Shown piece by piece: positions 7,884 through 62,854 of a stretch of 64,000 bases of DNA (positions are counted from its first letter, which is position 1; the number at the start of each line of letters is the position of its first letter). A model generated the notes under the pieces. It had not been told where the DNA came from. It did not search any database and worked only from the letters and a program-made list of their open reading frames with translations. Location: NCBI GenBank assembly GCA_963726745.1, contig CAVSDR010000002.1, positions 1 through 64,000 of the forward strand. The letters are read 5' to 3'. The translations under genes were made by a program, and so were the position numbers. Origin of the DNA: an uncultured Verrucomicrobiae bacterium (GTDB taxonomy: Bacteria > Verrucomicrobiota > Verrucomicrobiia > Chthoniobacterales > UBA10450).

Positions 7884-7909
7884 GGTCTAACGAGGAGAAG
7901 GAATCGCAC

Positions 7910-9094
7910 ATGCCGCAATACCAAAAGCTCGGGCAAATCCCGCGGAAACATCACGTTTGGTTCCACCGCAACGGTGCCGGCCCGGGCTACAAGAACGAGG
8001 GCATCTACTACGAGCACGTGATCACGACCGAAGGCTTTAACGAAGCCTACTCGATCATGTATCACCTGCGGCCGCCGACGCGGGTGCGGAGCGTGGAATT
8101 GATCAAGTGCGAGGAGCTGAAGAAGGTGACGGACGCGCCGCTGCGGCATCATCACCTGAAGGCGGCGAACGTGCCGCGCCAGGGCGACCTCTACACCGGG
8201 CGCATCCCGATGCTCTTCAACCAGGACATGATCGCCTACCGGCACAAGCCGGCGACGACCTACGGCGAATACGAGTATTACCGCAACGGCGGCGCGGACG
8301 AGATCATCTTCGTCTTCCACGGTGCGGGCACGCTGGAGTCGCCTTTCGGCAAGCTGCGTTATCGTGCGGAGGATTACATCGTGATCCCGCGCGGGATTAC
8401 CTACCGGCTGGTGCCGGACAAGGTGGAGGAGGAGGATTACCTGATCCTGGAATCGACCGGGCCGGTGCGCATTCCGCGGCGCTACCTGAATCACGAGGGC
8501 CAGATCCGGATGGGCTCGCCGTATTCGGAGCGCGATTTCCACGGGCCGTCCGAGACGCTCGTGATCGACCGGGACGAAGACGTGCCCGTGCTGGTGAAGG
8601 ATGGCCCGCGCTGGACGCGGGTGGTGCACGCGCACCATCCCTTTGATGTCGTTGGCTGGGATGGGTTCGTTTACCCGTTCACCTTCAACGCGCAGGACTT
8701 CGAGCCGATCACTGGCTTTGTCCATCAGCCGCCGCCGATCCACCAGACCTTTGAGATTCGCGGCTACGTCGTCTGCACCTTCGCGCCGCGGATGCTCGAT
8801 TACGGGCCGGACGCGGTGAAGATCCCGTGGGTGCACGATAACGTGGAGGCCGACGAGGTGCTCTTCTACGTGCGCGGCAATTTCGGTTCGCGCAAAGGGA
8901 TCGAGGCGGGCTCGATCACGCTCCATCCGCGCGGGATCCCGCATGGGCCGCATCCGGGGACGATCATGGCGAGCAAGGATGCGACGCGCACCGAGGAATT
9001 AGCCGTCATGTTCGACACCGAGCACACGCTCGAGTTGACCGAGCAGGCGGTGTCCCTGGACGATCCGAAGTATCCGCTGAGCTGGGTCGACTAG
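7910..9094 (+). CDS. hmgA: Homogentisate 1,2-dioxygenase
   Basis: MPQYQKLGQIPRKHH, HQPPPIHQTF, ITLHPRGIPHGPHPG, ELAVMFDT; GAGGAG RBS-like sequence upstream; follows hppD. Confidence 0.9.
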   Translation: MPQYQKLGQIPRKHHVWFHRNGAGPGYKNEGIYYEHVITTEGFNEAYSIMYHLRPPTRVRSVELIKCEELKKVTDAPLRHHHLKAANVPRQGDLYTGRIPMLFNQDMIAYRHKPATTYGEYEYYRNGGADEIIFVFHGAGTLESPFGKLRYRAEDYIVIPRGITYRLVPDKVEEEDYLILESTGPVRIPRRYLNHEGQIRMGSPYSERDFHGPSETLVIDRDEDVPVLVKDGPRWTRVVHAHHPFDVVGWDGFVYPFTFNAQDFEPITGFVHQPPPIHQTFEIRGYVVCTFAPRMLDYGPDAVKIPWVHDNVEADEVLFYVRGNFGSRKGIEAGSITLHPRGIPHGPHPGTIMASKDATRTEELAVMFDTEHTLELTEQAVSLDDPKYPLSWVD

Positions 9095-9157
9095 CGCCAG
9101 CCGACCGTCGGTCTGCGAGCTTGTCGCCTCGATCGGCGGTTTCTATAATCGCCGGTC

Positions 9158-11511: not shown

Positions 11512-12708
11512 ATGTTCCTGACGGTAAGCAAGCGGCTGGAGTTTTCCGCATCTCGCCGGCTCTTTTTGCCTAACGAGTCGGAAGCAGAAAACCGGCGCCG
11601 TTTTGGCGAAGAAACGAGCGCGCAGCACGGCGCCGGGCGGAACTACGTGGCCTGGTTTGTCTTCACCGGCCGGGTCGATTCCGGCACCGGGATGCTGATG
11701 AACATCAGCGAAATTAAACAGCGCGCCGGCGCGGTGATCGACGATCGCTATGACCACCGTTTCCTGAACGAGGACAACGCCGCTTTCCGCGACCGCGTGC
11801 CGACGCCGGAGAACGTCGCGCGGCAATTGCTCGTGGACGTGGCCCCGCTTTTCGAAGGCTCGGGCGCGGAGCTAACGAGTGTGTATCTGGAGGAAACGCC
11901 GCAGCGCAGCGCGACCGCATTTGCCAGCGGCCGGGTGGAGGCAAACTTCGACTTCCGCTTCTCGGCCGCACGGCAGACGATGTCGCCTCAACTCACGACG
12001 GAGGAGAACGAGAAGCTTTTCGGCGTGGCCGCTTCGCCGCATGGGCATGGGCACGATTACCGCGCGCGCCTGACTCTGGCGGAAACGCCGGCGCAGGAAG
12101 TCGTCGACCTTTGCCTCGCGAGCTTGATGGCGGAGCTCGACCATCGGCATCTCAACCTCGAAGTGCCGGCGCTCGAGCAGCGGCCGAAGACGACCGAGGT
12201 GCTGGCGCAATATCTCTTCGAGCGCGCCCGCGCGACGCTCCCGGTCGCGCGCGTGCGCCTGCATGAGCGGGCGGATTTTTTTGCAGAATACGACGCTGGC
12301 GGCGCGTATCGCCTGTCGATGCAGATGCCATTTAGTGCGGTCCACCGCTTGCAAAGTTACGAGCGGACCGAGGCGGAGAACGAAGCGATGTACGGGAAAT
12401 GCAACAACCCGCGCGGGCACGGCCACCTCTACGTGGCCGAGGCCACGATCGGCGGCGCGCTCGACGCCCGCAGCGGCACGCTCTACGACTTTGCGAAATT
12501 TGCCGACGCTTTGCAGGAAGCGGTTGCGCCCTGGCATAATCGGCACCTTGACCTGGAGGCGCCGGAGTTCCATCGCCGCCCGTCGACCGGCGAGAACATC
12601 GTGCAGGCGCTTTGGGAAAAACTCGATCCGCTGCTCGACCAGCGGCTCGAGCGGCTGCGGCTTTGGGAAACGGCGAACAATCGCTTCACCTTGCGGAGAA
12701 GCGTCTAG
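11512..12708 (+). CDS. 6-pyruvoyl-tetrahydropterin synthase / QueD-family protein with three tandem domains
   Basis: Three repeats of FSA...ENxxxFG/YG...DHxxLN...TxE; the third has CNNPRGHGH and STGENI. Confidence 0.85.
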   Translation: MFLTVSKRLEFSASRRLFLPNESEAENRRRFGEETSAQHGAGRNYVAWFVFTGRVDSGTGMLMNISEIKQRAGAVIDDRYDHRFLNEDNAAFRDRVPTPENVARQLLVDVAPLFEGSGAELTSVYLEETPQRSATAFASGRVEANFDFRFSAARQTMSPQLTTEENEKLFGVAASPHGHGHDYRARLTLAETPAQEVVDLCLASLMAELDHRHLNLEVPALEQRPKTTEVLAQYLFERARATLPVARVRLHERADFFAEYDAGGAYRLSMQMPFSAVHRLQSYERTEAENEAMYGKCNNPRGHGHLYVAEATIGGALDARSGTLYDFAKFADALQEAVAPWHNRHLDLEAPEFHRRPSTGENIVQALWEKLDPLLDQRLERLRLWETANNRFTLRRSV

Positions 12709-15156
12709 GTGAACTCGCTGCCTAAGATCGCGGAGCCTCCGCTTTGCCCGCCGCACGCCGCGCGTCTCTGCCGCCGGGTGCACTTTGCGCTTAGCGCTGT
12801 CGTGCTCCTGATCGGCGCAAGCAATCTCGCGGTCTGGCTCCTTCACCTGGAGCATCTGCCGTTCGTCACGGTCATGCGCTTCAATGCCGCGCTGGGCCTG
12901 ACCTTCGGCGGGATCGCGCTTTTCCTGTGGCGCGAGGAGAGGTTGACCGCGCGCAAGGCGGCCGTCGCGCGCGTGCTCGGCTTGCTCGTCCTGCTCATCG
13001 GCGGGCTTACCTCTGCGCAGTATTTGTTCGGGATCGATTTCGGGATCGACCAGCTCTTCGGCCCGCAACTGGGCGATCGCGTGGGCCTGAGCACGGTGCG
13101 TCCCGGGCGCATGAGCTTGAACGCGGCGCTGACTCTTTTTGCCGGCGGCCTTGGGTTGCTCTTACTCGACCTGCCGGCGGCCTGGAGGCGCCAGCTGCGC
13201 TTCTCGGTTGCGCCGTTGCTCGCGATCGTGGGCGCGTTGCCAGTGCTGGCGGGGCTCGTCGGCCACGGCATCGGGCTGGCGCATTTCACCGGGATCCTGG
13301 GATCAACGAACATCCTTCTTCATACCGCGGTGGCGGAGTTTGCGCTCTGCGCCGCGATCCTGACCGCGCGGCCGGAACGCTGGCCCATGCGGTTGGTCGT
13401 GGGGTCGGATGCGGGCGGCGTTCTCCTGCGCTGGCTGGGCCCGGCGACGGTTGTCTTTCTGCTCGCGCTCGGCTGGCTGGTGCACCGCGGGGAGATGGCC
13501 GATTTCTACGGCCCGCGCGAGGCGATCGCGATCATGATCTTCCTCGGTCTTATCCTGCTCGGCGCGCTTCTGCTCGCGGCCGCGGCGGCGCTTGCCCTCG
13601 CGGAAAAACGCCGGCAGCGCGCGGACGCCGCAGTGCGCGAGCAGGAGGAACGCTTCCGGACTTTAGCCGACAACATCTCGCAGCTCACCTGGATGACCGA
13701 TGAGACGGGCGCGATCGTTTGGTATAACCAACGCTGGTTCGAATTTACCGGCACCAAGCGCGAGGAGATGCTCGGCTGGGGCTGGGAGAAGGTGCACCAT
13801 CCCGAGCATCTCGAGCGGGTGAAGCAGCATTTCCGCGAAGCCATCGCCGTGGGCAAACAATGGGAAGACACCTTCCCGTTGCGCCGAGCCGATGGCGAGT
13901 GGCGCTGGTTCCTTTCGCGCGCGCTTCCGCGGCGCGACCCGTCCGGGCAGATCATCGGCTGGTTCGGGACCAACACCGACATCACCGAGCAACGTGCCGC
14001 CGCGCAAGCCCTGGCCCAGGCCAAAGAGAGCGCCGAGCGCGCCAGCAAGGCGAAGGACGAATTCCTGGCCGCGCTTTCGCACGAGCTGCGCACGCCGTTG
14101 ACGCCGGTGCTCATGATCGCCGAAGAGATGTGCCATGACACCTCGCTCTCGACGGAACTGCGCGCGCAGCTTCGGATGGTCCGGCGCAATGTGCGCCTCG
14201 AGTCGCGCCTGATCGACGACCTGCTCGACCTGACGCGGATCGCCCGCGGTCGCCTCGGCCTGGAAGCGGCGCCGACCGACCTGCACGAGACTTTGCGCGA
14301 AGCGATCGAGATCGTGCGCGACGACGCCGGTGCGCGCTCGCTCCACCTGGTGGAAAAATTGGATCGTGCCCCGGCGTGGATGCTGGGCGATCGCACGCGG
14401 CTCGAGCAGGTTTTTTGGAACCTTCTGCGCAATGCAGTCAAGTTCACCCCGCCGGGCGGACGCATCACCGTGAGCACGCGGCAGGACGACGCGCGCCAGC
14501 GTTGGTTGCTCGAGGTTTCCGATACCGGCATCGGGATCGCGCCCGAAGTTTTGCCGGTCCTCTTCGAGAAGTTCGAGCAAGGCGACCGGACGAACGATCA
14601 CCGCTTCGGCGGACTCGGTCTGGGGCTCGCCATCTCCAAGGCGATCGTCGAATTGCATGGCGGCGTGATCGAGGCGGCGAGCGAAGGGCCGGGCCGCGGC
14701 GCGACTTTCCGGGTCGAGCTCGGGCCGCTGATCGCTCCGCCGGCAAACGCAAGTCTGCCGGGCGAAGCACCGCGGGCGCAGGTGCAACTGGCGCCGCTGC
14801 GCCTGCTCCTGGTGGAGGATCACTCCGCGACTTCCGCAGTGATGGCGCGCCTGCTCGGCCGCGCAGGGCATCACGTGACCACGGCTGACAGCGTGGCGGC
14901 AGCGTTGGCGGCGGCGGAGCGCGAGGCTTTCGAGATCGTGATCTGCGATCTCGGTCTGCCCGACGGCACCGGGCACGAACTGATGCGGCAACTGCGCGAG
15001 CGTTATCCGCTGCGCGGGATCGCGGTTTCCGGTTACGGCATGGAAGAGGATGTGCGCCGTTCGCGCGAATCCGGCTTTGAAGCCCACCTGACCAAGCCGG
15101 TGGAATTCGCCGAGCTGCACGCCGCGCTCGCGCGCCTCGCCCAAGTGGCCGTCTAA
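12709..15156 (+). CDS. Membrane-bound hybrid sensor histidine kinase (TM-PAS-HisKA-HATPase-REC)
   Basis: Multiple TM segments; PAS; LSHELRTPL; NAVKFT; DTGIGI; GLGLGLAI; receiver LLVED...CDLGLPD. Confidence 0.92.
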   Translation: MNSLPKIAEPPLCPPHAARLCRRVHFALSAVVLLIGASNLAVWLLHLEHLPFVTVMRFNAALGLTFGGIALFLWREERLTARKAAVARVLGLLVLLIGGLTSAQYLFGIDFGIDQLFGPQLGDRVGLSTVRPGRMSLNAALTLFAGGLGLLLLDLPAAWRRQLRFSVAPLLAIVGALPVLAGLVGHGIGLAHFTGILGSTNILLHTAVAEFALCAAILTARPERWPMRLVVGSDAGGVLLRWLGPATVVFLLALGWLVHRGEMADFYGPREAIAIMIFLGLILLGALLLAAAAALALAEKRRQRADAAVREQEERFRTLADNISQLTWMTDETGAIVWYNQRWFEFTGTKREEMLGWGWEKVHHPEHLERVKQHFREAIAVGKQWEDTFPLRRADGEWRWFLSRALPRRDPSGQIIGWFGTNTDITEQRAAAQALAQAKESAERASKAKDEFLAALSHELRTPLTPVLMIAEEMCHDTSLSTELRAQLRMVRRNVRLESRLIDDLLDLTRIARGRLGLEAAPTDLHETLREAIEIVRDDAGARSLHLVEKLDRAPAWMLGDRTRLEQVFWNLLRNAVKFTPPGGRITVSTRQDDARQRWLLEVSDTGIGIAPEVLPVLFEKFEQGDRTNDHRFGGLGLGLAISKAIVELHGGVIEAASEGPGRGATFRVELGPLIAPPANASLPGEAPRAQVQLAPLRLLLVEDHSATSAVMARLLGRAGHHVTTADSVAAALAAAEREAFEIVICDLGLPDGTGHELMRQLRERYPLRGIAVSGYGMEEDVRRSRESGFEAHLTKPVEFAELHAALARLAQVAV

Positions 15157-15166
15157 TTTTTCGGCT

Positions 15167-15883
15167 GTGACCAACCGCTCGTTAGTCGCGGCCCGGAAAC
15201 TTCGCGCAGCGGTGGGGCGCCTCCGTTTCGCTCCGCCGGTGGCCTGCGTTTACAACCCGCTCGACTACGCCTGGGCGGCGCACGCCGAATACCTCGAACG
15301 CTACGCCATCGGGCGGAAGCGGATCGTGTTTCTCGGAATGAACCCGGGCCCGTTCGGGATGGCGCAAACCGGCGTGCCCTTCGGGGAAGTGGCGGCGGTG
15401 CGCGACTGGCTCGGGATCAAGACCGCGGTCAAAAAGCCGGCCAGCGAGCATCCGAAGCGTCCGGTCACCGGCTTCAGCTGCACGCGCAGCGAAGTGAGTG
15501 GCCAGCGGCTGTGGGGACTTTTCGCGCAACGTTTCGGCACGCCCGCGCATTTTTTTGCCGACCACTTCGTGCTCAACTATTGCCCGCTGGTTTTCATGGA
15601 AGCGAGCGGGGCAAATCGCACGCCGGAGAAGTTGCCCGCGGTCGAGCGCGAGCCGCTCTTCCGCGCCTGCGATGCTCATCTGCGCGCGGTCGTGCAGGCT
15701 CTCGAAGCCGAGTGGCTCATCGGCGTGGGTGATTTTGCGATGAAGAGAGCGCTGGCTATTTTTGCCGACGCGCCGGTGCGCGTGGGGCGCATCCTCCATC
15801 CGAGCCCGGCGAGCCCGGCGGCTAATCGCGGCTGGGCCGAAGCAGCCACGCGCGATCTGCAGCGTCTCGGGGTCTGGCGCTAG
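15167..15883 (+). CDS. SMUG1-type uracil-DNA glycosylase
   Basis: GMNPGPFGMAQTGVPFG, SEVSG, LHPSPASP. Confidence 0.9.
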   Translation: MTNRSLVAARKLRAAVGRLRFAPPVACVYNPLDYAWAAHAEYLERYAIGRKRIVFLGMNPGPFGMAQTGVPFGEVAAVRDWLGIKTAVKKPASEHPKRPVTGFSCTRSEVSGQRLWGLFAQRFGTPAHFFADHFVLNYCPLVFMEASGANRTPEKLPAVEREPLFRACDAHLRAVVQALEAEWLIGVGDFAMKRALAIFADAPVRVGRILHPSPASPAANRGWAEAATRDLQRLGVWR

Positions 15884-17622
15884 TGCGCCGCGGTCTGCAG
15901 CCCGGTCTTGTGATAGGTCACGAGCCGGAAGCCCCATTCGATCAAGGTGGCCTTCTCGCGGTCGAGCTGCTTCCGCTCGTTTAAGAAGGCCATGATCTTT
16001 TGCTTGAGCGCGTTTTGTTCGCCGGCGTCGTCAAGAATTTCGAAGATTTCCATCGAGAGCAGCCAGTCGTCGCCGTGCTCGGCCTGCTGCGTTTCCCAGA
16101 TTTCGCCAAGGCGTTCGTAGCCGACCTTCCGGTCGCGGATGTCGCGCACCTGCTGGTAGAGGTTCTCGAGTTTTTTGCGCTTCTCGTCTGACGGAACCTT
16201 GATCGTGCGCTCCTTCGGGATGACCGCGACCTGGTTGTAGGCATCCTTGTCGGCTGCGCCATTGAAGACGGAGACGATGCGCTCGCCCACGGCCATGTCG
16301 TAAACGCCCCACGCCGGATCGAAGAGGACGCGGTCGCCCTGCCGGGCAGTGCAATCGCGGAAAGTGATGAGCTGCATCTGTCCGTCGGCGCCGCGGAGAA
16401 TCTTTTCCACTTCGCCCTCGACCACGATGTCGCTGGCAAATTCCAGCCGCGCGCGCTTCCCTTCGCGCACCTCGGTTTCCTTCCAAGCGCCGATCGGCGA
16501 ACCGAAACCCTCGGCATGATGATCGATCCCGTGGCCCGGCAATTGTTTCCCATCAAGCGCGAGCGCCGTCGGGCCGGTGGTGCGCAGATAGATCGGCGCG
16601 TTGTTGGCGTCGGTCAGCACTTCGGTAAACGTCCCGCTGACCTGAAGGCCGGAGGAGTATTCGCAGGTGGTGGTGTTCTTGCAGTCGATCGCTTTCTGGA
16701 TGCCTTCGAGACCGCCAACGCGGAAAGCCATCTTGCTGGCAAATTCTTCGAGCACCTCGGTGAGATGCTGGAAATCGCGGCAAACAAAGAGCTGCGGCTG
16801 CTTCGTGGTGATATCGAACGCCTGGTGCGCGGCCTCGACGGAATACCAGCGCTTCTCGACGTGCGGCTCGAGGCAGGAAACCGATTCGCCGATCGAGGAG
16901 AGCAGGCCGGCGCCGTAAATCTTCGGCTGCTCCAGCGTGCCGATGAGGCCGTATTCCACGGTCCACCAATGCAGGCGCGAGAGCAGCGCCATCTCGGAGG
17001 GTTCGCCGAGATTTTGCTGGCGCTCCTCGACCAGTTTCGTGGCCGCGGCGAGCTCGTCCGGATCGGAATCCGGCAGCTCTTTCAAGATCGAGAGATGGCG
17101 GATCGCCTCATACAACTCGAAGTCTTTCTTCGATTGCATCGCCTTCGCGCCGACTTCGCCGAAGCGCTGGAGATAACGCGAATATTCCTGGTCGACAATG
17201 ATCGGCGCGTGCCCCGCGGCCTCGTGGACAATGTCCGGCGCGGGGGTGTATTCGATGTGATGGATCTGGCGCATGTCGCACGCGATCACCAGAACCTTGT
17301 AGGCCTGGAATTCCATGAACGCCGCCGGCGGGATGAAGCCATCCACCGCCACCGCGCCCCAGCCGATGCGCCCGAGAATTTCGTTCATCTCGCTGATCCG
17401 CGGGATGCGCTCGAAGGAAATGCCGGTCTCGAGCAGGCCCTGGAAGTAAACCTTGTGCGCGTATTCCTTCAGGAAAAACATGTTCTGCCGCATGATGAAG
17501 CGCCAGACCGCGTGGTCGACCGGGGTGTATTCATCGAAGCGCTGGTCGACCGCGAATTGCAGCAGGTGTTTCGGGAGCGCGGCCACGGCCGCATTGTCGA
17601 GAGAGATGCCGTTCGAGTTCAT
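15880..17622 (-). CDS. phhA: Aromatic amino acid (phenylalanine) hydroxylase, long form with C-terminal extension
   Basis: YTPAPDIVHEAAGHAP, WWTVEYGL, IYGAGLLSSIGE. Confidence 0.88.
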   Translation of the reverse strand: MNSNGISLDNAAVAALPKHLLQFAVDQRFDEYTPVDHAVWRFIMRQNMFFLKEYAHKVYFQGLLETGISFERIPRISEMNEILGRIGWGAVAVDGFIPPAAFMEFQAYKVLVIACDMRQIHHIEYTPAPDIVHEAAGHAPIIVDQEYSRYLQRFGEVGAKAMQSKKDFELYEAIRHLSILKELPDSDPDELAAATKLVEERQQNLGEPSEMALLSRLHWWTVEYGLIGTLEQPKIYGAGLLSSIGESVSCLEPHVEKRWYSVEAAHQAFDITTKQPQLFVCRDFQHLTEVLEEFASKMAFRVGGLEGIQKAIDCKNTTTCEYSSGLQVSGTFTEVLTDANNAPIYLRTTGPTALALDGKQLPGHGIDHHAEGFGSPIGAWKETEVREGKRARLEFASDIVVEGEVEKILRGADGQMQLITFRDCTARQGDRVLFDPAWGVYDMAVGERIVSVFNGAADKDAYNQVAVIPKERTIKVPSDEKRKKLENLYQQVRDIRDRKVGYERLGEIWETQQAEHGDDWLLSMEIFEILDDAGEQNALKQKIMAFLNERKQLDREKATLIEWGFRLVTYHKTGLQTAAH

Positions 17623-17658
17623 AAAAGGAAGAGGCGCGAGACGCGTGTAGTTTAACGC

Positions 17659-18499: not shown

Positions 18500-18502
18500 T
18501 CC

Positions 18503-18654
18503 GGGGAGCGCAGGCTGCCAGCCTGCGGGTCGCGGCAGCTTGCTGCGACAGTCTTCTCTGCCGCGCGCGCCGCGTCCCGGCGCCGCGTTTGACCCCGTCG
18601 AAAGTTCGTCGCCGCAGGCTGCGGCGACCAGCAGGCTGGCAGCCTGCGCTCCCC
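18503..18654. repeat. REP-like inverted-repeat element between convergent genes
   Basis: 24-bp perfect inverted repeat GGGGAGCGCAGGCTGCCAGCCTGC / GCAGGCTGGCAGCCTGCGCTCCCC; each arm is itself a hairpin. Confidence 0.8.
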
Positions 18655-20710: not shown

Positions 20711-20714
20711 GTCG

Positions 20715-53015: not shown

Positions 53016-53019
53016 CCGC

Positions 53020-53373
53020 CTAGGCGGTGGCTTCCCAGGCGAGCCGCGGGGCGTCGCCCCAGAGATCCTCGAGACTGTAGAACTCGCGCTTCTCCGCGTG
53101 GAAGATGTGCACGATCACCTGCAGGTAATCGAGCACGATCCATTGGCTCGCGGGAAAGCCATCGACCGCCGTCGGGCGCGTCTGGTGGTCCTGCTTCAGC
53201 GAAGCCTCGATCTCACCCGCGATTGCCTTCAGTTGCGGCTCCGAGGCCGCCGAGCAGATCACAAAGAAATCGGTAAAGGTCGAGATCTCCCGGAGATCGA
53301 GCACCACGATGTCCTCCGCCTTCTTGTTCGACGCGAGTTCGGCGCAGGCTTTGGCTAGTGCTTCTGAGGTTAT
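53020..53373 (-). CDS. rsfS: Ribosome silencing factor (apparent ATA start)
   Basis: KKAEDIVVLD, TDFFVICS, WIVLDY, REFYSLEDLWGDA; follows nadD. Confidence 0.9.
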   Translation of the reverse strand: MTSEALAKACAELASNKKAEDIVVLDLREISTFTDFFVICSAASEPQLKAIAGEIEASLKQDHQTRPTAVDGFPASQWIVLDYLQVIVHIFHAEKREFYSLEDLWGDAPRLAWEATA

Positions 53374-53951
53374 TTCCGGGGCTCCTGGTAAAGCGCGCGG
53401 CGCAGGATAATCTCCTCCACCGCTCGCGGAACGAGATAACGGACGGAGCGCCCCGAGGCAACTCTGTTTCTGATCTCGGTCGAGGAAATATCGATCACGC
53501 GGTGAACCACCGGATATGGGCTCTCCGCCGGCAGCGCCCCGCGCTCGAGCAAAACGAACTGCACCAGCCGCTGCAACTCCTCGAAGCGATGCCAGCTCTC
53601 GAGCCGCGGGAGTTGATCGCCACCGATGAGGTAGAACAACTCCGAGGCCGCATCTTGCTGTCTAAATTCCTCGATCGTATCGATCGTGCGGGAAGGCGGC
53701 GGGCGGCGCAGCTCCCGCTCGTCGAGGGCAAAGCCCGGCTCGCCCGCGAGCGCCGCGCGCAGCATCTCCACCCGCGCCTCCGCCGGCGCCGGCTGCTCCG
53801 TGAGCTTATGCGGCGAGATCGCCGCGGGCAGGAAGAGCACCTGCTCGAGCTCCAGTTGCTCGCGGGCCGCGCGCGCCAGGATGAGATGCCCGTGGTGCAC
53901 CGGGTCGAAGGTGCCGCCGTAGATGCCGATGCGTTTCAACGCTGGCATCAT
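53370..53951 (-). CDS. nadD: Nicotinate-nucleotide adenylyltransferase
   Basis: GGTFDPVHHGH, SPHK, ISSTEIR. Confidence 0.94.
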   Translation of the reverse strand: MMPALKRIGIYGGTFDPVHHGHLILARAAREQLELEQVLFLPAAISPHKLTEQPAPAEARVEMLRAALAGEPGFALDERELRRPPPSRTIDTIEEFRQQDAASELFYLIGGDQLPRLESWHRFEELQRLVQFVLLERGALPAESPYPVVHRVIDISSTEIRNRVASGRSVRYLVPRAVEEIILRRALYQEPRK

Positions 53952-53978
53952 CGCGCAGACCTCCTAACTTGCCAGCCG

Positions 53979-55079
53979 ATGAAATCCGATCGCCTTGGCC
54001 AGTTGCTCCTCACCGGTGTGCCCGGGACCGAACTCGATGCGGAAACGGCCGCGCTTTTCCGGCGCGTCCAACCCGGCGGCTTCATCCTTTTCGGCCGCAA
54101 CATCCAGAACGCGCCGCAGCTCCGGAAATTAATCGACGACCTGCGCTCCCTCAGCCACGCGGAGCCGATCATCACCATCGACCAGGAGGGCGGCCGGGTC
54201 TCGCGGCTGCGCCTCATCGGGAACGAGCCGCCAAACGCGCAGCAGCTCCGCGAAAAGGACGATGAAGCACTCGTTAGGGCACACGGCGAGATCACCGGCC
54301 AGCTCCTGCGCCTCTTCGGTTTCAATCTCGATCTTTGCCCGGTGCTCGATCTTTCCTTCGACGACGAGGCGGATAATTCCCTCCGCGGCCGCTGCTACGG
54401 GCGCGATGTCGCGCAGGTGGTGCGTTTAGCCGGCGCCTTCAACGAGGCCCTGCGCGCGCAAGGGATCGCGAGCTGCGGCAAACATTTTCCCGGCTACTCC
54501 GCGGCCGAGATCGATGCCCACCATGACTTGCCGAAGATCGAGCGCACCCGCGAGGAGTTGGAGGAGCACGAGCTCGCCGTCTTCCGCCAGTTTGCCGGCA
54601 AAGTAGACAGCATGATGATCTGTCACGGTTGGTATCCCTGCTTCGAGCCGGAGAAGCTGCCCGCCTCGCTCTCGCCGCGCGTGGTCACGCAGCTGCTGCG
54701 CGAGGAATTGCAATTCGACGGCCTGATCATGACCGACGACCTCGACATGGGCGCGATCTATAATGAATACGGCCTCGACGAAACCATCCGCCTCACGCTC
54801 GCGGCCGGGAACGATCTCGCGATGATTTGCCATCGGGTCCACGAGATCGGCCAGGCGCTCGACGTCCTCCGGACTTTGCCGGCAGCGCAGACCACGCGCG
54901 CACTCGAAAATGTCGCCCGCTGGAAGCAGCGCCTCGCGCCACCGGAAGCCTTCTCCGAGGAAAAATTCCGCGAGCTCGACGCGCGAGTTTGGGAGCTGCG
55001 CGTGGCCGTGCTCGGCGAGGAACGCGCCGCGGAACGCAGCCCGGAAGACGGCGCCCGCTCACCCGTGGAGGTCTATTAG
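53979..55079 (+). CDS. nagZ: GH3 beta-N-acetylhexosaminidase
   Basis: IDQEGGRVSR, KHFPG, DAHHDLP, TDDLDMGA. Confidence 0.85.
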   Translation: MKSDRLGQLLLTGVPGTELDAETAALFRRVQPGGFILFGRNIQNAPQLRKLIDDLRSLSHAEPIITIDQEGGRVSRLRLIGNEPPNAQQLREKDDEALVRAHGEITGQLLRLFGFNLDLCPVLDLSFDDEADNSLRGRCYGRDVAQVVRLAGAFNEALRAQGIASCGKHFPGYSAAEIDAHHDLPKIERTREELEEHELAVFRQFAGKVDSMMICHGWYPCFEPEKLPASLSPRVVTQLLREELQFDGLIMTDDLDMGAIYNEYGLDETIRLTLAAGNDLAMICHRVHEIGQALDVLRTLPAAQTTRALENVARWKQRLAPPEAFSEEKFRELDARVWELRVAVLGEERAAERSPEDGARSPVEVY

Positions 55080-55135
55080 CCAGCACTTTGGCGGGGCGAT
55101 TGACGGCCTCGCCCGCAACCCATAATCTTCGCGCG

Positions 55136-56066: not shown

Positions 56067-57170
56067 TCAGACGTTAAACCGAAACTCCACCACGTCCCCG
56101 TCCCGCATCACGTATTCCTTGCCCTCGATCCGCAGCTTGCCCGCTTCCCGCGCCTTTGCCTGCGAGCCGAGCGCCACCAGGTCGTCGTAGTGCACCACTT
56201 CCGCGGCGATGAAGCCGCGCTCGAAATCGCCGTGGATCACCCCCGCCGCCGCCGGCGCCTTGTCGCCTTCGCGGATCGTCCAGGCCCGCGTTTCCTTCTC
56301 TCCCGTGGTCAGGTAAGTGCGCAGGCCTAACAAGTGGTAAACCGCGCGGATGAGCGCGCTCACCCCACTGCTCGCCACCCCGAGATCGCGCAAGTATTCC
56401 TGCGCCTCCGCTTCCGGCAGGTCGACCAGCTCGCTCTCAATTTGCGCGCTGATTACCACCGCCTCGCTCCCGAAATGCTGGCGCGCGTATTCCTCCACCG
56501 CCTTTACCTGCGGATGCTCCGCCGCCTGGGCCAGCTCGGCTTCGGCCACATTGCAGGCGAAGATCGTCGGCTTATCCGTGAGCAGGAAAAAATCGCGCGC
56601 GATCACCTTTTCGTCGTCGCTCAGCGGGGCGGTTATGGCCGGTTTGCCCGCGTCCAGGTGCGGGAGCAATTTCTCGATCACCGCGTGCTCCGCCTTGGCC
56701 GCCTTTGCGCCCATGCGCACTTCCTTTTGCAGCCGCTCGCGCCGCTTTTCCAGCGAGGCCAGGTCGGCCAGGACCAGTTCGGTGTTGATCACTTCGATAT
56801 CGCGCACCGGATCGATCGTCCCGCTCACGTGATGGATGTCGCCATCCTCAAAACAGCGCACCACCTGCACGATCGCGTTGACTTCGCGGATGTGGCTGAG
56901 GAATTGATTGCCCAGGCCTTCGCCCGCGCTCGCCCCTTTCACCAGGCCGGCGATGTCGACAAACTCGATCGCCGCCGGGATGATTTTCTGCGAGCCGGAG
57001 AGTTTACTCAGCACCTCGAGCCGCGCATCCGGCACCGTGACCACGCCCAGGTTTGGATCGATCGTGCAAAACGGATAATTCGCCGCCTGCGCTTTCCGCG
57101 TGCGCGTGACCGCGTTAAAGAGCGTGGATTTCCCCACGTTGGGCAGACCGACGATTCCAGCGCTGAGCAT
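56067..57170 (-). CDS. ychF: Redox-regulated ATPase YchF
   Basis: [39 protein letters not shown]. Confidence 0.96.
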
Positions 57171-57327: not shown

Positions 57328-58401
57328 TTACACCAGCGCCGGAAGGCGGCTTCCATTCGCCTGCCCGTTCCCATGGCTCCCGGGCATGGTTAGGGAGGCC
57401 GCGGCCATGTTTGCCGGCGCACCTGCCGGGGCCAGTGCCTTGTTTGCGGTGGCCGCGTAGACCACCGGAGCGCTCGCCACCCCCTGGCGGCTCCCGTTCA
57501 CTGCCTGCACGATGAACTCCACCGCGGCCTCGTTAGGCACTTCCACCTGCGCCAGCGGCTCCTTTGTGCTCGCCACCAGCTTGTACTCACTCTGCACGCC
57601 GATGATGCGCATCCGGAAACGGTAGCGCGAGGCGAAAGGCGTGGCCTCGCAGCTTAGCAGCACCTGGTGCGTGTTCGCGCTGCCCTCCACCGCAGTCGCC
57701 CCGGTGGCCGCGCGCGCCGCGACCTCGAGTCCCGCCGGTTGCCCCGGGGTGGTCCGGTTTGCCGGCATCTCCAGGCCAAAGGCCAGCCACCGCGGATCAT
57801 CCGCCTTCAATAGTTGGCCCAGCACGCCCACCAGGAGGCGCATGAGCGAAGTTAACGCCTCCACCGCGCTGCCCCGGGCCACCCCTTTCTCCTCCAGCGC
57901 CGTATCCGCCGCCGCCGCCAGCGCGTGCCTCGAGACCGCCGCGTTGCGCAGCGCCGCGCCTGCTGCCGCCGTCACCCCCAGGGTGGGAGCCTCGTAGCCC
58001 GGTGTGCTCGTTAGGCAGTCGATCATCCGCAAGGCCAGCGCCAGGCGGTCGTTAATCGTCGCCGGGATGGCGATGCTGGGCGTGGTGAAACCCACCTGGG
58101 CCCACTGCCGGTTCCAGCGCTTGCCGAAGAAGGCACTCAGTGCGCCCGTCACCTTGCCCAGCCATCCAGTTAAGGCACTATCCGCCGCATGGAAGTTCGC
58201 GTAGGCCGTCTCCTGCGCACTGCGGGCCGCGTTAAAGTTCCGATCCGCCAGGACCAGCGCATCCGTGGCCGCCTTCATCTGCGGGGCGTCCACTTGTTTT
58301 AGGTCCAGCGTGGTCCCGTAGGTTACCAGGCCCTGCTCCATTTCTCCGCCCAGCACCACCAGGTCGGCGATCGTTCTCGGTATTTGACTGTAGTATTTCA
58401 T
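57328..58401 (-). CDS. Hypothetical protein: helical N-terminus + FN3-like C-terminal domain
   Basis: 357-aa ORF; PGQPAGL...YRFR...FIVQAVNGS...AS resembles an FN3 beta-sandwich. Confidence 0.65.
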   Translation of the reverse strand: MKYYSQIPRTIADLVVLGGEMEQGLVTYGTTLDLKQVDAPQMKAATDALVLADRNFNAARSAQETAYANFHAADSALTGWLGKVTGALSAFFGKRWNRQWAQVGFTTPSIAIPATINDRLALALRMIDCLTSTPGYEAPTLGVTAAAGAALRNAAVSRHALAAAADTALEEKGVARGSAVEALTSLMRLLVGVLGQLLKADDPRWLAFGLEMPANRTTPGQPAGLEVAARAATGATAVEGSANTHQVLLSCEATPFASRYRFRMRIIGVQSEYKLVASTKEPLAQVEVPNEAAVEFIVQAVNGSRQGVASAPVVYAATANKALAPAGAPANMAAASLTMPGSHGNGQANGSRLPALV

Positions 58402-58559
58402 ATTTAGATGGGGCCTTGTTCTAGCAGCCCCAGTGCCAATGGTGGTTCGTTAGGTAGAAACTTTTTTTTGGGCCACCAGGGAAACTCCCTTCCTCGGCGA
58501 ACTCACCGGGCTTCGTTTCCCTGGGCGGCAGGCAGCACTTTCTTCCAGTGCATTTCTTT

Positions 58560-58652
58560 CCCGGGTGAAAACGGAATCCATTTCGCCTCGGAATTCTGTT
58601 CCCGGGTGAAAACGGAATCCGTTTCGCCTCGGAATTCCGTTCCCGGGTGAAA
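58560..58652. repeat. 41-bp tandem direct repeat (2 copies + partial third)
   Basis: CCCGGGTGAAAACGGAATCC(A/G)TTTCGCCTCGGAATTC(T/C)GTT starts at 58560 and 58601; partial copy at 58642. Confidence 0.85.
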
Positions 58653-58697
58653 ATAGACCTCTTCTCTACCGGGAATTGCCCCGGATACCGTCGCGGC

Positions 58698-58894
58698 GTC
58701 CTCGCTCACTTGAAAGGCGACTACCGCCTCATGGCCCCCTTTTATATGGCAGTGGCCTGCGCCTCCTCGAAATGGACATGGCCCCGAAAGGGGTGAGCAC
58801 CGGGGACGGTGCGAATCAATGCGTTCGCCTGCGCATTAAAGACGTTGACCTCGGGTATCTCCAGCTCACCATCCGCGACGGCAAAGGTGGGCGG
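58698..58894 (+). pseudogene. intI: Integron-integrase-like tyrosine recombinase fragment
   Basis: VLAHLKGDYRLMA / LLYGSGLRLLE-[16-aa insert]-CVRLRIKDVDLGYLQLTIRDGKGG; frameshifted and truncated at both ends. Confidence 0.7.
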
Positions 58895-58978
58895 CGCGCA
58901 TCGCGAGGGCCTGCCGGTGCAGCCAGGAACTCCGCGTCTTCGGGTTCGATCCACAGTCATGAGGCCTCCGGAGCGCCA

Positions 58979-59087
58979 GCCTAACCAGGAGATGGAGCGA
59001 ACGGCGGACCGCTGTGCGCGCCACCTTTGAGAGGACTTCCATACTTTTTCTCCGAGCAACGCGCACCCTCGCCCGCCGTCGCATCAC
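58979..59087 (+). other. Truncated attC-like site
   Basis: Starts with GCCTAAC (RYYYAAC). ATGGAGCGAACGGCGG pairs imperfectly with CCGCCGTCGCATCA with unpaired bases. The terminal GTTRRRY is missing. Confidence 0.55.
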
Positions 59088-59501
59088 AGCGCCTTCGCCG
59101 AGATCGACCGCGAAACGAATCAAACGGCAATTGCTTTTGTGACCTCGCGTATCGCACGCAGCCGAGATTCCGGACGGTCTTCGACATGACGACGCAGCTA
59201 ACCAGGCGATAATATAGAGAACTGCCTGTCCGCTCCGCTGTTCGCAGCTGGGCTCTTGCAATCATAAAGGACAGGCGGACGAACAGAAGAATGCGGGGCC
59301 TGATATTCCTCGGAGACAATTCTAGCAGGCGAGAAATAAAATTTCCGAGGGTTCCCATTCCGGCGCCCGGCGGCGGCACGCCATCCGCGACGTCACGAGT
59401 GACCACTAACGGGAGAATTTGGCTTGCCGCAGGCGGGGGAGCTGAGTTGAATCGGGCCCGATTAGTTCCTAACCCATCAATAGACACTCGAGGTAAACCT
59501 T

Positions 59502-60423: not shown

Positions 60424-60483
60424 ACCGAACCAGGCATTGCAGCGAACGGCGGGACCGCGGTGCACGCCACTTTCGACGATGAC
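60424..60483 (+). other. Degenerate left half of a second attC-like site
   Basis: ACCGAACCAGGCATTGCAGCGAACGGCGGGACCGCGGTGCACGCCACTTT is similar to 58979-59030. Confidence 0.45.
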
Positions 60484-60526
60484 GGCAACCCATTGATAGG
60501 ATCGCGTCTGCCGAGACTCGCGCGCC

Positions 60527-62854
60527 TTACCGATCCAGCCGCACAAAGAGGAGGCGCAGGCTGTTGAGCACGACGACGACGGTGCTGCCTTCGTGCGCGA
60601 CGACGCCTAACGAGAGCGGGATGCCGCGGGTGAGGGCGAGCAGCGCCATCACCAGCACGGTTCCGAGGGCGACGGCGATATTCTGGCCGATGATGCGTTT
60701 GGCGCGGCGGCTCAACTCGAAGGCGATGGCAAAATTCTCCAGCCGATCTTTCATTAAGACCACTTCGGCCTGCTCCATGGCAGCATCGGAAGCGCGCGCG
60801 CCCATGGCCACGCCGACATCGGCGGCCGCGAGGCAGGGAGCGTCGTTCACGCCGTCGCCGATCATCGCCAGCTTGCCGCCTCTTTTTTTCAACTCCTGGA
60901 CGGCGCTGACTTTTTGCCCGGGAGAAAGCTCGGCCCGCACGTCTTCCACCCCAGCTTCGCGGGCGATCAATTCCGCGGTCGCGCGGCGATCTCCCGTGAG
61001 CATGACGGTGTGCATCCCGAGGCGACCGAGCCGCGCGATCAAGGCGGCGGCTTCCGGCCGCAAACGGTCGCGCAGGAGCAGCCGCCCGCAGAGCCCCGGG
61101 CCGCCGATCCAGACCTCGGCGACATCGTGTTCCTGGGCCGCGGCAGCATCGCAGGACTGCCCGATGCGCTCGCGCACGAAGGCCCGGCTGCCAAGGGCAA
61201 AAAGCTGACCGCGCCGGCGTGCGCTGATCCCGCCGCCGGGGAGCGAATCCGCGTGGCTGAATTCCTCGGTCGCGAGTTGCCGCCGGAGGCCGATTTTCTC
61301 GATCGCGCGGGAGAGGGGATGGTGCGAGAGGCGGGCCAGATTAAAGGCGGCCGCGAAGAGCGCCTCTTCGGTGCCGCTAAAAGCCTCGAGCCTAACGAGT
61401 GCGGGCAGGCCCTCGGTGAGCGTGCCGGTTTTATCGAGCGCGACCGTGCGGACATCCGCCAGGGTCTCAATGGCCGCGCCGCCGCGGAAGAGCACGCCGC
61501 GCCGTGCCCCGGAGGCGATAGCCGACAAGATGGCGGAGGGAACGCTGAGGACGAGCGCGCAGGGCGACATGACCACGAGCAAGGTCATCGCCCGGTAGAA
61601 CGCGCTCGGTTGCCCGCTGGCGTGCTGGAAGGGCGACCAGCCAAGAACGAGCCAGCCGACGAGAAAGAAGGCCGCGGCGGAGAGGAGCACGAGGTAGGTG
61701 TAGCCGGTGCCAAAGCGATCGCTAAAGCGCTGCGAGGGCGCCTTGAAATGTTGCGCCTGCTCGATCAGGTAGACGATCTTTTGCAGCGCGCTTTCCCTGG
61801 CCGGCCGCAGCACTGCGCCATCGAGCACACCCCAGACATTCAAGGTGCCGGCCAGCGCGAGATCGCCCGGCGCCTTCGGCATCGGGCGGGATTCGCCGGT
61901 TAAATTCGACTCGTCGCAGGCGCTTTCGCCGCGGGTGATGCGGAAGTCGACCGGCACCTGCTCGCCCGCTTTCACCCGCACCTGCATCCCCGGTTCCAAG
62001 GCGTCAACCGCGCGCTCGCTCTCCTCGCCGTTAACGAGGACGGTTGCGGTCTTGGGCGCGCCACGGAGGAGTGCGCCGATCTCGCGCTGGGTGCGCGCCC
62101 CCGCGAAATGTTCCATCGCGCCGGAGGCCGAGAAGAGGAAGAGCAGCAGCGCCCCTTCTGCGTAGGCACCGATCGCGGCCGCCCCAAGCGCGACCGCGAG
62201 CATGAGGAAATGAATCTCCAACTCGCCGCGCCGCAGGCGTGCCCAGGATTCAATCGCCGCATCCCAGGCGCCGGAGAGATAGCTTAGGGCGAAAAGAGAC
62301 AGCACGATGGCCGGCGCGGCCTGCAGGCGTTGCGCCGCGAGCGCGCCGAGACCGGAGAGGAGACAGGCGAGCGAGAGCCAGGCGAGCTGCTTCCACTCAT
62401 CGGGGTCGGCATCCGGCCCGCTGTGGCCGCAACAACTGCCGGCCCGGTCCGGCCGCGGCCAGCGGAGCTTGTTCCACTGCCAAAATCCGACCGCGGTGCG
62501 GCAGGTCAATTTCTCGATGACGGTGTTCCCGAGCACGTCCTTGACCACGACGTTGGCGTTCCCGACCTGGCGCGATGGCGCTTCGCCGCACTGGGCGCAG
62601 AGACCTTGGGAATCGAGGACGCCGCAGCCTTGCTCGCGCCCGGCCACGGCCTCGCTCACGCGTTCCGCGATGCGCTGCCCGCGGTCGTCCCCGAGCGTGG
62701 CCACGGAGAGCAGTTGGTTCTTCGATTGAAACGCGACCGCTTCGAGCTGCGGCTCTTCGCTCATCAAGCGGGCGACTTTCCGAACCACGCACGATCCATC
62801 CGCGCGCGCGACCGGCGGGCGGGGACTGGTTTGAGACTCGGAGTCGTCCGGCAT
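60527..62854 (-). CDS. Heavy-metal P1B-type ATPase (P1B-4-like motifs) with Cys-rich N-terminus
   Basis: LTGES, VVMSPCAL, DKTGTLT, GDGVNDAP, HEGST; the real start is likely ATG at 62854. Confidence 0.9.
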   Translation of the reverse strand: MPDDSESQTSPRPPVARADGSCVVRKVARLMSEEPQLEAVAFQSKNQLLSVATLGDDRGQRIAERVSEAVAGREQGCGVLDSQGLCAQCGEAPSRQVGNANVVVKDVLGNTVIEKLTCRTAVGFWQWNKLRWPRPDRAGSCCGHSGPDADPDEWKQLAWLSLACLLSGLGALAAQRLQAAPAIVLSLFALSYLSGAWDAAIESWARLRRGELEIHFLMLAVALGAAAIGAYAEGALLLFLFSASGAMEHFAGARTQREIGALLRGAPKTATVLVNGEESERAVDALEPGMQVRVKAGEQVPVDFRITRGESACDESNLTGESRPMPKAPGDLALAGTLNVWGVLDGAVLRPARESALQKIVYLIEQAQHFKAPSQRFSDRFGTGYTYLVLLSAAAFFLVGWLVLGWSPFQHASGQPSAFYRAMTLLVVMSPCALVLSVPSAILSAIASGARRGVLFRGGAAIETLADVRTVALDKTGTLTEGLPALVRLEAFSGTEEALFAAAFNLARLSHHPLSRAIEKIGLRRQLATEEFSHADSLPGGGISARRRGQLFALGSRAFVRERIGQSCDAAAAQEHDVAEVWIGGPGLCGRLLLRDRLRPEAAALIARLGRLGMHTVMLTGDRRATAELIAREAGVEDVRAELSPGQKVSAVQELKKRGGKLAMIGDGVNDAPCLAAADVGVAMGARASDAAMEQAEVVLMKDRLENFAIAFELSRRAKRIIGQNIAVALGTVLVMALLALTRGIPLSLGVVAHEGSTVVVVLNSLRLLFVRLDR

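Follow-up and report, generated by a model that had tools for sequence, protein, structure and literature searches.

Recognition of self-DNA before uptake is described – in the part of a recent preprint on DNA uptake-enhancing sequences (DUES) that is drawn on here (bioRxiv 10.1101/2025.10.24.684340) – for two families of Proteobacteria only. That part of the account also gives the properties that define DUES and with which M1 is compared below: the DNA uptake sequence (DUS) is concentrated in the core genome and scarce in diversifying or acquired DNA, terminators contain about half of all DUES, and inverted-repeat arrangements of them are common. Our subject is a word of nine letters, GCCTAACGA (hereafter M1; its ten-letter form is GCCTAACGAG), that recurs in the genes of a 64,000-nucleotide stretch of DNA from an uncultured Verrucomicrobiae bacterium (positions 1 to 64,000 of contig CAVSDR010000002.1, assembly GCA_963726745.1; hereafter the window). 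The source genome (G000, in which the window is C2:1-64000) comprises 3,406,779 bases in 7 contigs, with 64% GC and a completeness of 94.7%; on sequence grounds it is placed in a genus of uncultured soil Chthoniobacterales.

Like DUES, M1 is a short, non-palindromic and abundant word that occurs in both orientations, is rich in core and poor in accessory DNA, is common to related species and not enriched in distant ones, and arises in place by point mutation at permissive positions. It resembles the uptake signal sequence (USS) of Pasteurellaceae in combining a core of nine letters with flank preferences that are weaker and set at helical-scale distances, in numbering more than 1000 copies on both strands, in lying mostly within genes in permissive frames with few inverted pairs, and in being common to related species. 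Karlin and colleagues (Karlin et al. 1996) are said to have found the spacing of USS more even than random, and M1 is likened to it in this too. The two differ in that M1 belongs to Verrucomicrobiota and is unrelated in sequence; USS has a predicted receptor (ComN) and AT-rich flanking preferences; M1 ranges about 16-fold in density within one genus, coexists with a second word (M2), and has an integron core site for its core. With the DUS of Neisseriaceae M1 shares the lack of palindromy, a length of 9-10 nt, hundreds to thousands of copies, enrichment in the core genome, variation by lineage, and avoidance of stop-containing frames except at gene ends. DUS, however, are 10-12-mers with dialects and a minor pilin (ComP) as receptor; for M1 there are 8 pairs within 60 bp, the ComP_DUS cut-off is missed, and low-density congeners keep the same word, more sparsely, instead of a replacement dialect.

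Other dispersed words are less alike. HIP1 of cyanobacteria (GCGATCGC) is palindromic, hyper-abundant in genes, lineage-specific, of unknown function and linked to methyltransferases; M1 is similarly hyper-abundant, intragenic and lineage-specific, but both M1 and M2 are asymmetric. Chi and the FtsK-orienting polar sequences (KOPS) are, like M1, over-represented in the core genome, yet they are co-oriented with replication and neither M1 nor M2 is. Repetitive extragenic palindromic (REP) elements and miniature inverted-repeat transposable elements (MITEs) are conserved beyond a core and mostly intergenic, whereas M1 has uninformative flanks and 75% of its copies lie inside coding sequence (CDS). 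A search of the full-text literature, supplementary files being outside its scope, found no account of M1 or of uptake-type sequences in Verrucomicrobiota. Two things are new here: M2 as a second dispersed word, and the identity of M1's first seven letters with the integron inverse core.

Results

Abundance of M1 and its effect on coding sequence

The original prediction was of at least 24 exact copies of GCCTAACGA in the window. An exact word count returns 24 (14 on the forward and 10 on the reverse strand) at the same places, the reverse copies having been displaced by one base. One hundred dinucleotide shuffles of the window gave a mean of 0.27 copies (maximum 3), close to the 0.4 copies first estimated from base composition. 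When up to one mismatch to GCCTAACGAG is allowed the window contains 38 matches; shuffles contain 3.78 (largest 8).

The excess is not peculiar to the window. M1 occurs 1312 times in G000 (681 forward, 631 reverse), where Markov models of orders 0-3 predict 16-24 copies of the 9-mer; at order 3 its z-score tops that of all 9-mers, and among 10-mers GCCTAACGAG, with 820 copies, ranks first. Density is 0.32-0.53 per kb on every contig (7 of 7), which rules out confinement to one macrodomain.

Placement relative to genes was determined using a crude in-house caller (3087 genes, 88.5% coding): 988 copies fall within genes, 160 across gene edges and 164 in intergenic DNA. All four stop-free frames are used, namely antisense S-L-G (453), sense x-L-T-x (234), sense P-N-E/D (224) and antisense x-V-R-x (77). 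As a null model, synonymous codons were shuffled within each gene such that protein and codon usage were kept. The observed 989 CDS copies (459 in the same sense as the gene plus 530 antisense) compare with 15.4 + 8.0 after shuffling (20 replicates, maxima 21 and 13): an enrichment of at least 40-fold over a codon-preserving null. The DNA-level selection or drive proposed at the outset is thus supported, and the enrichment holds genome-wide under a codon-shuffled null and under Markov models of orders 0-3.

M1 overrides codon usage and, at times, amino-acid identity. The tripeptides SLG and PNE exceed compositional expectation 1.63-fold and 2.48-fold, respectively. The form TCGTTAGGC spells 453 of the 783 SLG tripeptides, although TTA is a rare codon; these same copies make up 453 of 3018 TTA codons, and the sense x-L-T-x copies 234 of 1492 CTA codons. 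The two frames in which M1 contains a stop are put to use at gene ends: in 195 of 3084 genes the word provides the termination codon (106 as GCC-TAA, 89 as CGT-TAG). Stop usage in G000 is odd for a genome of 64% GC (TGA 1090, TAG 1072, TAA 922), in part because M1 gives 195 stops and M2 a further 43.

Anatomy and specificity of M1

The extended form of M1 is [C]GCCTAACGA[G][T/A]nn[W], with the strict core CTAAC.A. The flanks of individual copies are unique – no sequence is shared around them – and M1 is therefore not a repeat element. Information nevertheless extends beyond the 9-mer: position +9 is G in 62% of cases (T 2%), +10 is T in 43% (G 9%), +13 is A or T in 70%, and there is a weak upstream preference for pyrimidines. 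Single changes at positions 2-6 and 8 occur at or under background. Positions 0, 1, 7 (G>A) and 9 (not T) are tolerant, with residual enrichment of 5- to 69-fold; the order of preference is G >> C > A > T at position 0 and C >> G > A > T at position 1, while positions 2 and 3 are strict.

Flank preferences are matched in another species. In G013 (approximately 78% DNA identity), which has 90 copies in 140 kb, the frequencies are 0.59 for C at -1, 0.60 for G at +9, 0.44 for T at +10 and 0.80 for W at +13. The simplest account of such agreement would be a single conserved reader with a footprint of some 14-15 bp. Together the data are best explained if M1 is a genus-specific signal at the level of double-stranded DNA, irrespective of strand, gene or frame.

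Distribution along the genome

Because GC skew is weak in the G000 assembly, its sign was not used and polarity was judged by local orientation runs. The two orientations are about equally frequent in each 100-kb bin (the most uneven being 29:13) and on each contig, in agreement with the lack of strand polarity noticed in the window.

The density of M1 climbs with local GC, from 0.025 per kb (GC <0.58) to 0.60 per kb (GC >=0.66): a trend that runs opposite to the prediction from M1's own composition. With core and accessory DNA assigned by GC and annotation, M1 is scarce in low-GC accessory DNA, as expected of a word said to be poor in foreign sequence. The longest M1-free stretch (35 kb, G000:C7:60030-95400, GC 0.593, genes almost all on one strand) is a surface-polysaccharide/O-antigen cluster encoding glycosyltransferases, Wzy, Wzz, DegT-type aminotransferases and an ABC transporter. 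The word had also been reported absent from a presumed foreign island at 1-6300 of the window; that stretch is of lower GC, has zero copies of M1 and of M2, and is an island carrying the Gabija defence genes gajA-gajB (1759..5329, + strand). The pair, at the start of the contig, is complete (GajA E 1.6e-216; GajB E 1.2e-228).

Copies of M1 also avoid each other. Relative to a null in which each site is jittered inside its own 10-kb block, observed M1-M1 pairs number 11 vs 46.3 at 12-100 bp, 21 vs 53.2 at 100-200 bp and 38 vs 53.7 at 200-300 bp; at 300 bp and beyond, observed and expected pairs are about equal in number, and orientation is without effect. Among 1312 copies there are 8 pairs at 60 bp or less, 2 of them inverted.

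Lineage range, origin and turnover of sites

All 34 genomes of the genus have M1, in 138-2435 copies against 30-118 of a reversed-word control, and in each of the 34 the forward and reverse counts are near equal. (Unpublished genomes underlie the counts for G001, G008 and G042, and likewise the position of G042 next to G000 as its sister.) The 33 congeners are approximately 74-87% identical to G000 at the DNA level over the regions searched. Counts of the 10-mer in 16 genomes that represent 15 other families of the order run from 0 to 14 and do not exceed the control; 722 kb of more distant soil-metagenome contigs yielded 13 copies. Among the genomes compared, enrichment is thus restricted to the genus, in line with the lineage-specific signal first suggested.

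The closest named public hutU loci (84-85% amino-acid identity) are from metagenome-assembled genomes (MAGs) labelled uncultured Verrucomicrobiae, Chthoniobacterales and Verrucomicrobiota: four such contigs carry 8, 3, 1 and 4 copies of M1, and of the other 76 loci one has a single copy. Occurrence of the word in 34 separately assembled species genomes plus four named public MAG contigs rules out an assembly artefact. Among JGI metagenome contigs with HutI the best match had 70% amino-acid identity and no close relative was found; of three soil-metagenome runs (from one study) the best contained 0.11 of sampled words, and the short assembled contigs of the runs are a mixture of related organisms.

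Density spans about 43 to about 709 per Mb across the genus, approximately 16-fold. On a clpP-clpX DNA tree (30 genomes; one locus, rooted at the midpoint, with 11 of its 27 inner forks unresolved) it is clade-structured yet labile: sister pairs have 49 vs 120, 190 vs 53, 709 vs 396 and 385 vs 494 copies per Mb. Even the low-density G002 and G005 are about 11- and 18-fold over expectation (400-kb samples). A replacement dialect was sought in these low-density congeners and none was found: the top words of G002 are the ends of an attC-like element (see below) and those of G005 a hexamer tandem repeat. M1 is the top dispersed word in G005; in the G002 sample no other dispersed word as strong as M1 was seen.

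How sites arise is evident from a six-species alignment of 4.66 kb spanning hutI-tig-clpP-clpX (approximately 78% identity), in which there are nine site columns, each occupied in one or two species. Aligned non-motif sequences differ from the word at 3-9 of 9 columns (gaps counted as differences), and the six sites read as intragenic are gap-free. At several sites the residues themselves change: for instance, GCGCTCGGC (A-L-G), TCGCTGGCC (S-L-A) and TCGCTGGAC (S-L-D) stand opposite TCGTTAGGC (S-L-G). Sites were therefore written in place by multiple substitutions, with fast turnover, and footprints or insertions are excluded as their source: M1 sites are created by point substitution in existing sequence and turn over between species. 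In the window, the hutI site at 45042..45050 is present in none of five aligned congeners (5-6 of 9 letters changed), and the hutU site at 42456 has a same-offset counterpart in loci L017 and L018 and none in L001 and L002.

A second dispersed word

Ranking of k-mers brought out a second word, M2 (GYYGGCTAAW; extended form A-W-n-n-n-G-Y-Y-GGCTAA-W-W-T), with 958 copies in G000 and 19 in the window. CDS copies number 739 vs approximately 30 under the synonymous shuffle. M2 has unique flanks, occurs in both orientations, shows no polarity, and shares G-N-CTAA with M1. It also excludes itself, with 11 vs 25.2 and 16 vs 28.6 pairs under 200 bp. No fixed M1-M2 spacing or orientation was found in G000, and the two words appear to be read independently of each other.

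The distribution of M2 is patchy. Clear enrichment is seen in 3 of 34 genomes – G000 (958 vs 76 in the control), G011 (394 vs 74) and G015 (254 vs 102) – of which the G011 assembly is fragmentary and the G015 signal weak (18 sites in 260 kb). On a single-locus tree G000 and G015 fall in different clades, and the sisters of both (that of G000 being the unpublished G042) are without M2.

Relationship to the integron core

Letters 1-7 of M1, GCCTAAC, are an exact instance of the integron inverse core RYYYAAC, and the complement GTTAGGC fits the core GTTRRRY. Recombination sites of integron cassettes (attC) are characterized, in the parts of two sources cited here, by an inverse core RYYYAAC and a core GTTRRRY bounding 57-141 bp that fold into a hairpin (PMC3053210, PMC12901181). 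The chance that a 10-mer matches RYYYAAC on either strand is approximately 0.008, as estimated post hoc.

The genus has elements of this kind. An element of about 120 bp, present in G002 as 24 full copies in 400 kb (C3 and C5 samples), starts [A/G][T/C]CTAACGAG... and ends ...GGTTAG[A/G][T/C]; CTAACGAG is thus the left end of the genus's attC-like element. As a single strand the element forms a long imperfect hairpin with paired ends (-31.1 kcal/mol, z -3.4), and so shows the attC feature of RYYYAAC...GTTRRRY bounding a folding imperfect palindrome. G000 has an array of 11 same-orientation copies, 0.47-0.92 kb apart, at C6:736.5-744.1 kb (C6:736575-744081, locus L251). By eye, element copies in G000 and G002 are far more alike than the genome background of approximately 78%. 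Rfam gave 0 matches on the G000 array region, and two attC finders, run with thresholds so strict that even the known array was missed, returned nothing. Of the 27 left ends of CTAACGAGAA type listed for the G002 sample, 5 read GCCTAACGAG.

Integrases of the integron type are found as well. A bona fide IntI (272-474 bits, cut-off 265) is present in 15 of 34 genomes, G013, G044 and G048 among them; G017 has up to 6 matches, and those of G002, G014 and some of G017 are split or contain stops. G000 has no IntI above cut-off genome-wide (best 80 bits), MAG incompleteness weakening negative calls of this kind. The window holds a decayed integron remnant (58616..59215, + strand; pieces compared by eye): a box-I fragment of an IntI-like tyrosine recombinase at 58616-58990 (weak TIGR02249 match, E 1.5e-4), a degraded attC-like copy from 58979 that starts GCCTAACCAGG, and a second fragment at about 59196-59215.

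M1 shares with integron sites the fit of GCCTAAC/GTTAGGC to the consensus, the attC-like elements of the genus that begin ..CTAACGAG, and a genus in which 15 of 34 genomes encode IntI. It differs in that attC sites are hairpins of 57-141 nt, as given in the part of PMC3053210 relied on here, whereas M1 is a lone duplex word: its sites have unique flanks and no partner arm, so that the attC hairpin feature is absent. At most 12 of the 1312 copies lie inside the approximately 120-bp elements, and M1's pattern of tolerance departs from the R/Y degeneracy of the core. Nor is density related to IntI: of the 10 genomes with high density (>=1200 copies) 5 encode it, as do 7 of the 16 intermediate ones and 3 of the 8 with low density (<300). 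The integrase is not the driver of M1 in any simple sense.

M1 sites and neighbouring features in the window

Five codon contexts had been named for the window, and all five are present; coordinates follow with the strand, and copies of the full ten-letter form are marked 10-mer. Antisense S-L-G accounts for 8 sites: 23093..23102 (+, MscS-like gene), 24119..24128 (+, Zn-dehydrogenase gene), 26925..26934 (+, 10-mer), 30624..30633 (+, 10-mer, PHP-domain gene), 34922..34931 (-, 10-mer, tgt), 41038..41047 (-, 10-mer, hutH), 45042..45050 (-, hutI) and 60605..60614 (+, 10-mer, P-type ATPase gene). The x-L-T-x context accounts for 7, as G-L-T-N at 20801..20809 (-, sigma-70 family gene), R-L-T-S at 37218..37227 (-, 10-mer, Ser/Thr kinase gene), G-L-T-M at 42456..42464 (+, hutU), G-L-T-N at 44192..44200 (+) and G-L-T-S at 44639..44648 (+, 10-mer), both in an arginase-family (hutG-like) gene, R-L-T-N at 50264..50272 (+, cinA) and C-L-T-S at 58007..58016 (-, 10-mer). 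P-N-E accounts for 4, with L-P-N-E at 11568..11577 (+, GCCTAACGAG, PTPS-domain gene) and at 27686..27695 (+, 10-mer), R-P-N-E at 26133..26142 (-, 10-mer) and V-P-N-E at 57529..57538 (-, 10-mer). The L-V-R context occurs once, as antisense L-V-R-L in the P-type ATPase gene (61390..61399, +, 10-mer), and R-stop twice, where M1 gives V-R-stop (TAG) to a cation-efflux gene (25497..25505, -) and G-R-stop (TAG) to hutI (45896..45904, -). The remaining 2 sites are left intergenic by the crude gene caller. By frame arithmetic from the table of open reading frames (ORFs), that at 47283..47291 (+) would close the C-terminal trigger-factor ORF 46750-47295, and the TAA of that at 18165..18174 (+) may end ORF 17706-18170.

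The 14 near-matches noticed alongside the exact copies are also real. Ten lie within one mismatch of the 10-mer: GTCTAACGAG at 7885..7894 (+, changed at the tolerated position 1) and 22464..22473 (+), GACTAACGAG at 15178..15187 (-), GGCTAACGAG at 23550..23559 (+) and 36422..36431 (+), GCCTAACAAG at 35900..35909 (+, the tolerated G>A at position 7), 49659..49668 (-) and 56325..56334 (+), and CCCTAACGAG at 42112..42121 (-) and 54270..54279 (-). Four keep the core CTAACGA intact with changed flank letters: AGCTAACGAG at 11870..11879 (+), GACTAACGAC at 20711..20720 (-), CCCTAACGAC at 31892..31901 (-) and ACCTAACGAA at 58446..58455 (-). The one-mismatch search also returned CCCTAACGAG at 23627..23636 (+). 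The 19 copies of M2, found by word search on either strand, span 13662..55084 and start at 13662, 17732, 18030, 20955, 21320, 25810, 25873, 29378, 33934, 34814, 35634, 36920, 38695, 38945, 44382, 48439, 51607, 54425 and 55075.

Several further features of the DNA deserve mention. A cluster for tyrosine/phenylalanine catabolism and pterin metabolism occupies 6707-17622 and encodes an HPPD-homogentisate dioxygenase fusion (795 aa), GTP cyclohydrolase I, a doubled PTPS (398 aa) and a biopterin-dependent hydroxylase of 580 aa. Trigger factor is split between two overlapping frames (45954-46970 and 46750-47295), and the TGT match (33506-35618) begins at profile position 111; both are probably frameshifts from indel errors in long reads or real pseudogenes. 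At 58540-58650 three tandem units of about 42 bp (TTCCCGGGTGAAAACGGAATCC...) lie in a gene-poor, low-GC stretch. Elsewhere in G000, tandem arrays of the hexamer GCCAAC (102-234 bp) occur at six loci (C1:5032-5258, C3:82903, C3:731566-731832, C4:146656-146855, C6:313569-313929 and C6:1027519), adjoined at four of the six by arrays of CCGACT (24-84 bp); these arrays may code for repeat proteins.

Discussion

M1 is subject to a strand-symmetric, sequence-specific directional force that acts on DNA, is limited to one genus, is self-limiting over about 300 bp and varies in strength between species. The original prediction offered an uptake sequence, a nucleoid-protein site or a HIP1-like repeat as possible roles. 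We give an even chance to the view that M1 is a self-recognition word akin to DUS and USS, upheld by biased uptake or recombination. Under this hypothesis M1 would be bound by some part of the transformation machinery at the cell surface or in the periplasm, fragments bearing M1 would be taken up and recombined preferentially, and alleles that create M1 would spread by molecular drive until halted by purifying selection. A second M1 near an existing one would add little, which would explain the exclusion zone. To judge from its genomic signature, biased uptake plus recombination would be the only described mechanism that accounts for the whole. The labile, 16-fold range in density, differing even between sisters, fits facultative drive better than an essential chromosomal function. 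G000 encodes ComEC, DprA, 3 secretins, 16 prepilin-type matches over cut-off and 10 ATPases of the T2SSE family, and ComEC is present in 33 of 34 genomes of the genus. Candidate exposed proteins of G000 include pilin-like ORFs at C3:432350, C4:323164 and C3:158088, clusters of minor pilins at about 128-134 kb of C2 and about 155-158 kb of C5, and a ComEA-like ORF at C2:230178.

A number of observations weigh against uptake. The transformation hardware is only permissive, being near-universal (control genomes included) and common in non-competent bacteria; across the 34 genomes the presence of ComEC bears no relation to the density of M1, and ComEC is intact in the low-density G002. The ComEA-type HHH_3 match in G000 is weak (29.3 bits). 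The best match to ComP_DUS (PF16732) in G000 scores 21.9 bits against a cut-off of 27.3 and covers mostly the generic N-terminus of pilins (ComN was not searched). Inverted terminator pairs of the DUS type are missing from the genome-wide scan of M1 pairs in G000. M1-M2 pairs number 99 vs 71.4 at 12-100 bp, with a ratio of about 1 beyond, and this lack of mutual exclusion counts against uptake because two redundant uptake tags should exclude each other. The match of M1 to the integron core and to the end of the attC-like element is unpredicted by an uptake model and needs an assumption of hitch-hiking. To these can be added the crudeness of the gene calls, and that a role in uptake would be deduced from the genome signature of an uncultured organism.

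The alternative that survives best, though we hold it to be unlikely, is that an abundant chromosomal protein – architectural, or concerned with segregation or repair – binds M1, and another such protein M2, each site being kept by selection in cis; the bound protein would cover some 200-300 bp and make a nearby second site redundant. The reader-like specificity, with extended flank preferences kept between species, and the even spread over all contigs are as such a protein would have them, and an exclusion of about 300 bp that is specific to each word, with none between M1 and M2, is more simply explained by two proteins than by two redundant uptake tags. However, none of the nine site columns is common to all six species, and a density range of approximately 16-fold, sisters included, would be odd for a core function. 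Known site-specific systems (parS, matS, SlmA, Noc) use tens of sites, not thousands, and the rare codons and changed residues in conserved enzymes suggest drive over local benefit.

A tentative extension of the uptake hypothesis, which we likewise hold to be unlikely, would tie it to the integron: the genus may use the attC R-box sequence as its self-recognition word, cassettes then carrying built-in entry tickets, or the reader may descend from a recombinase-type R-box binder. Cassettes with a word-bearing attC would be imported preferentially, which is compatible with biased uptake; in Vibrio, according to the part of PMC12614218 cited here, transformation feeds the recruitment of cassettes.

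Drive could also act after entry, if word-directed repair or gene conversion, with or without a methyltransferase, favoured the word-bearing strand (compare very-short-patch repair and HIP1). Such a process would leave the same population-genetic signature as biased uptake (symmetry, core enrichment, turnover), the exclusion zone is on the scale of a repair tract, and one-off variants of the core number 94 against approximately 157 expected (summed), as near-site conversion would produce. Known repair biases, however, are effects of about 1.2- to 2-fold on 4-5-mers, and here a word of 9-14 letters is enriched 50-180-fold; M1 is, unlike HIP1, non-palindromic; and since non-motif orthologues are at least three positions off, a mechanism working on mismatches alone would rarely complete a site. 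On balance we consider this explanation improbable.

More doubtful again is the possibility that M1, as duplex DNA, imitates the R box of integrons and is read by an integrase or a derived tyrosine recombinase and serving as cassette landing pads or binding sites. The correspondence is real: letters 1-7 fit RYYYAAC/GTTRRRY at the low chance level given above, CTAACGAG is the attC-like left end, some listed CTAACGAGAA-type ends read as the ten-letter form, G000 has its 11-element array and the window a decayed integrase/attC remnant, and almost half of the genomes have IntI. Yet IntI is independent of M1 density, and G000 carries its 1312 copies without an IntI above cut-off. The tolerance of M1 ignores R/Y degeneracy, and genomic targets of IntI (attG) need GWT only, so far as the cited portion of bioRxiv 10.1101/2022.09.11.507474 goes. 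Site-specific recombination cannot write a word by point substitution, landing pads in essential genes would be harmful, and hardly any copies of M1 sit in the elements.

A polar signal – a Chi-like regulator of RecBCD/AddAB or a KOPS-like guide for FtsK – would share with M1 the strong over-representation of a short word in the core genome, but is very improbable given 681:631 copies, no 100-kb bin beyond 29:13, balance in 34 of 34 genomes and 459/530 relative to genes. That M1 is a by-product – of a REP/MITE mobile element, of a preferred peptide, or of errors in assembly or polishing – has next to no credibility: a few copies do stand at the ends of a repeated element of about 120 bp, but flanks are unique, four frames and intergenic DNA are used with 75% of copies inside CDS, synonymous shuffling removes 98% of copies, sites align without indels to non-motif orthologues, and the word recurs in 34 separate assemblies and in named public MAG contigs.

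Whatever maintains it, one nine-letter word has been written hundreds to thousands of times through the genes of every sampled species of a genus. If M1, in this abundant genus of uncultured soil Verrucomicrobiota, is an uptake word, then the phenomenon would be phylogenetically broad, with self-preferring transformation in soil communities, and such words could be used as lineage barcodes that separate native from acquired DNA in metagenome bins. Handles for testing are provided by two words, each of which excludes its own copies and tolerates the other's, by a density range of 16-fold and by a sequence link to integrons. If the genus uses the attC R-box sequence as its self-recognition word, or if the reader descends from an R-box binder, then more than 1000 integrase-type core sites would have been written into housekeeping genes across the genus, and M2, as a second and independently read word that has arisen or been kept patchily (3 of 34 genomes), would suggest that word readers in Verrucomicrobiota form an exchangeable family. 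And should uptake prove to be the wrong explanation, a protein that reads a word of 9-14 bp every 2.6 kb would still be undescribed biology.

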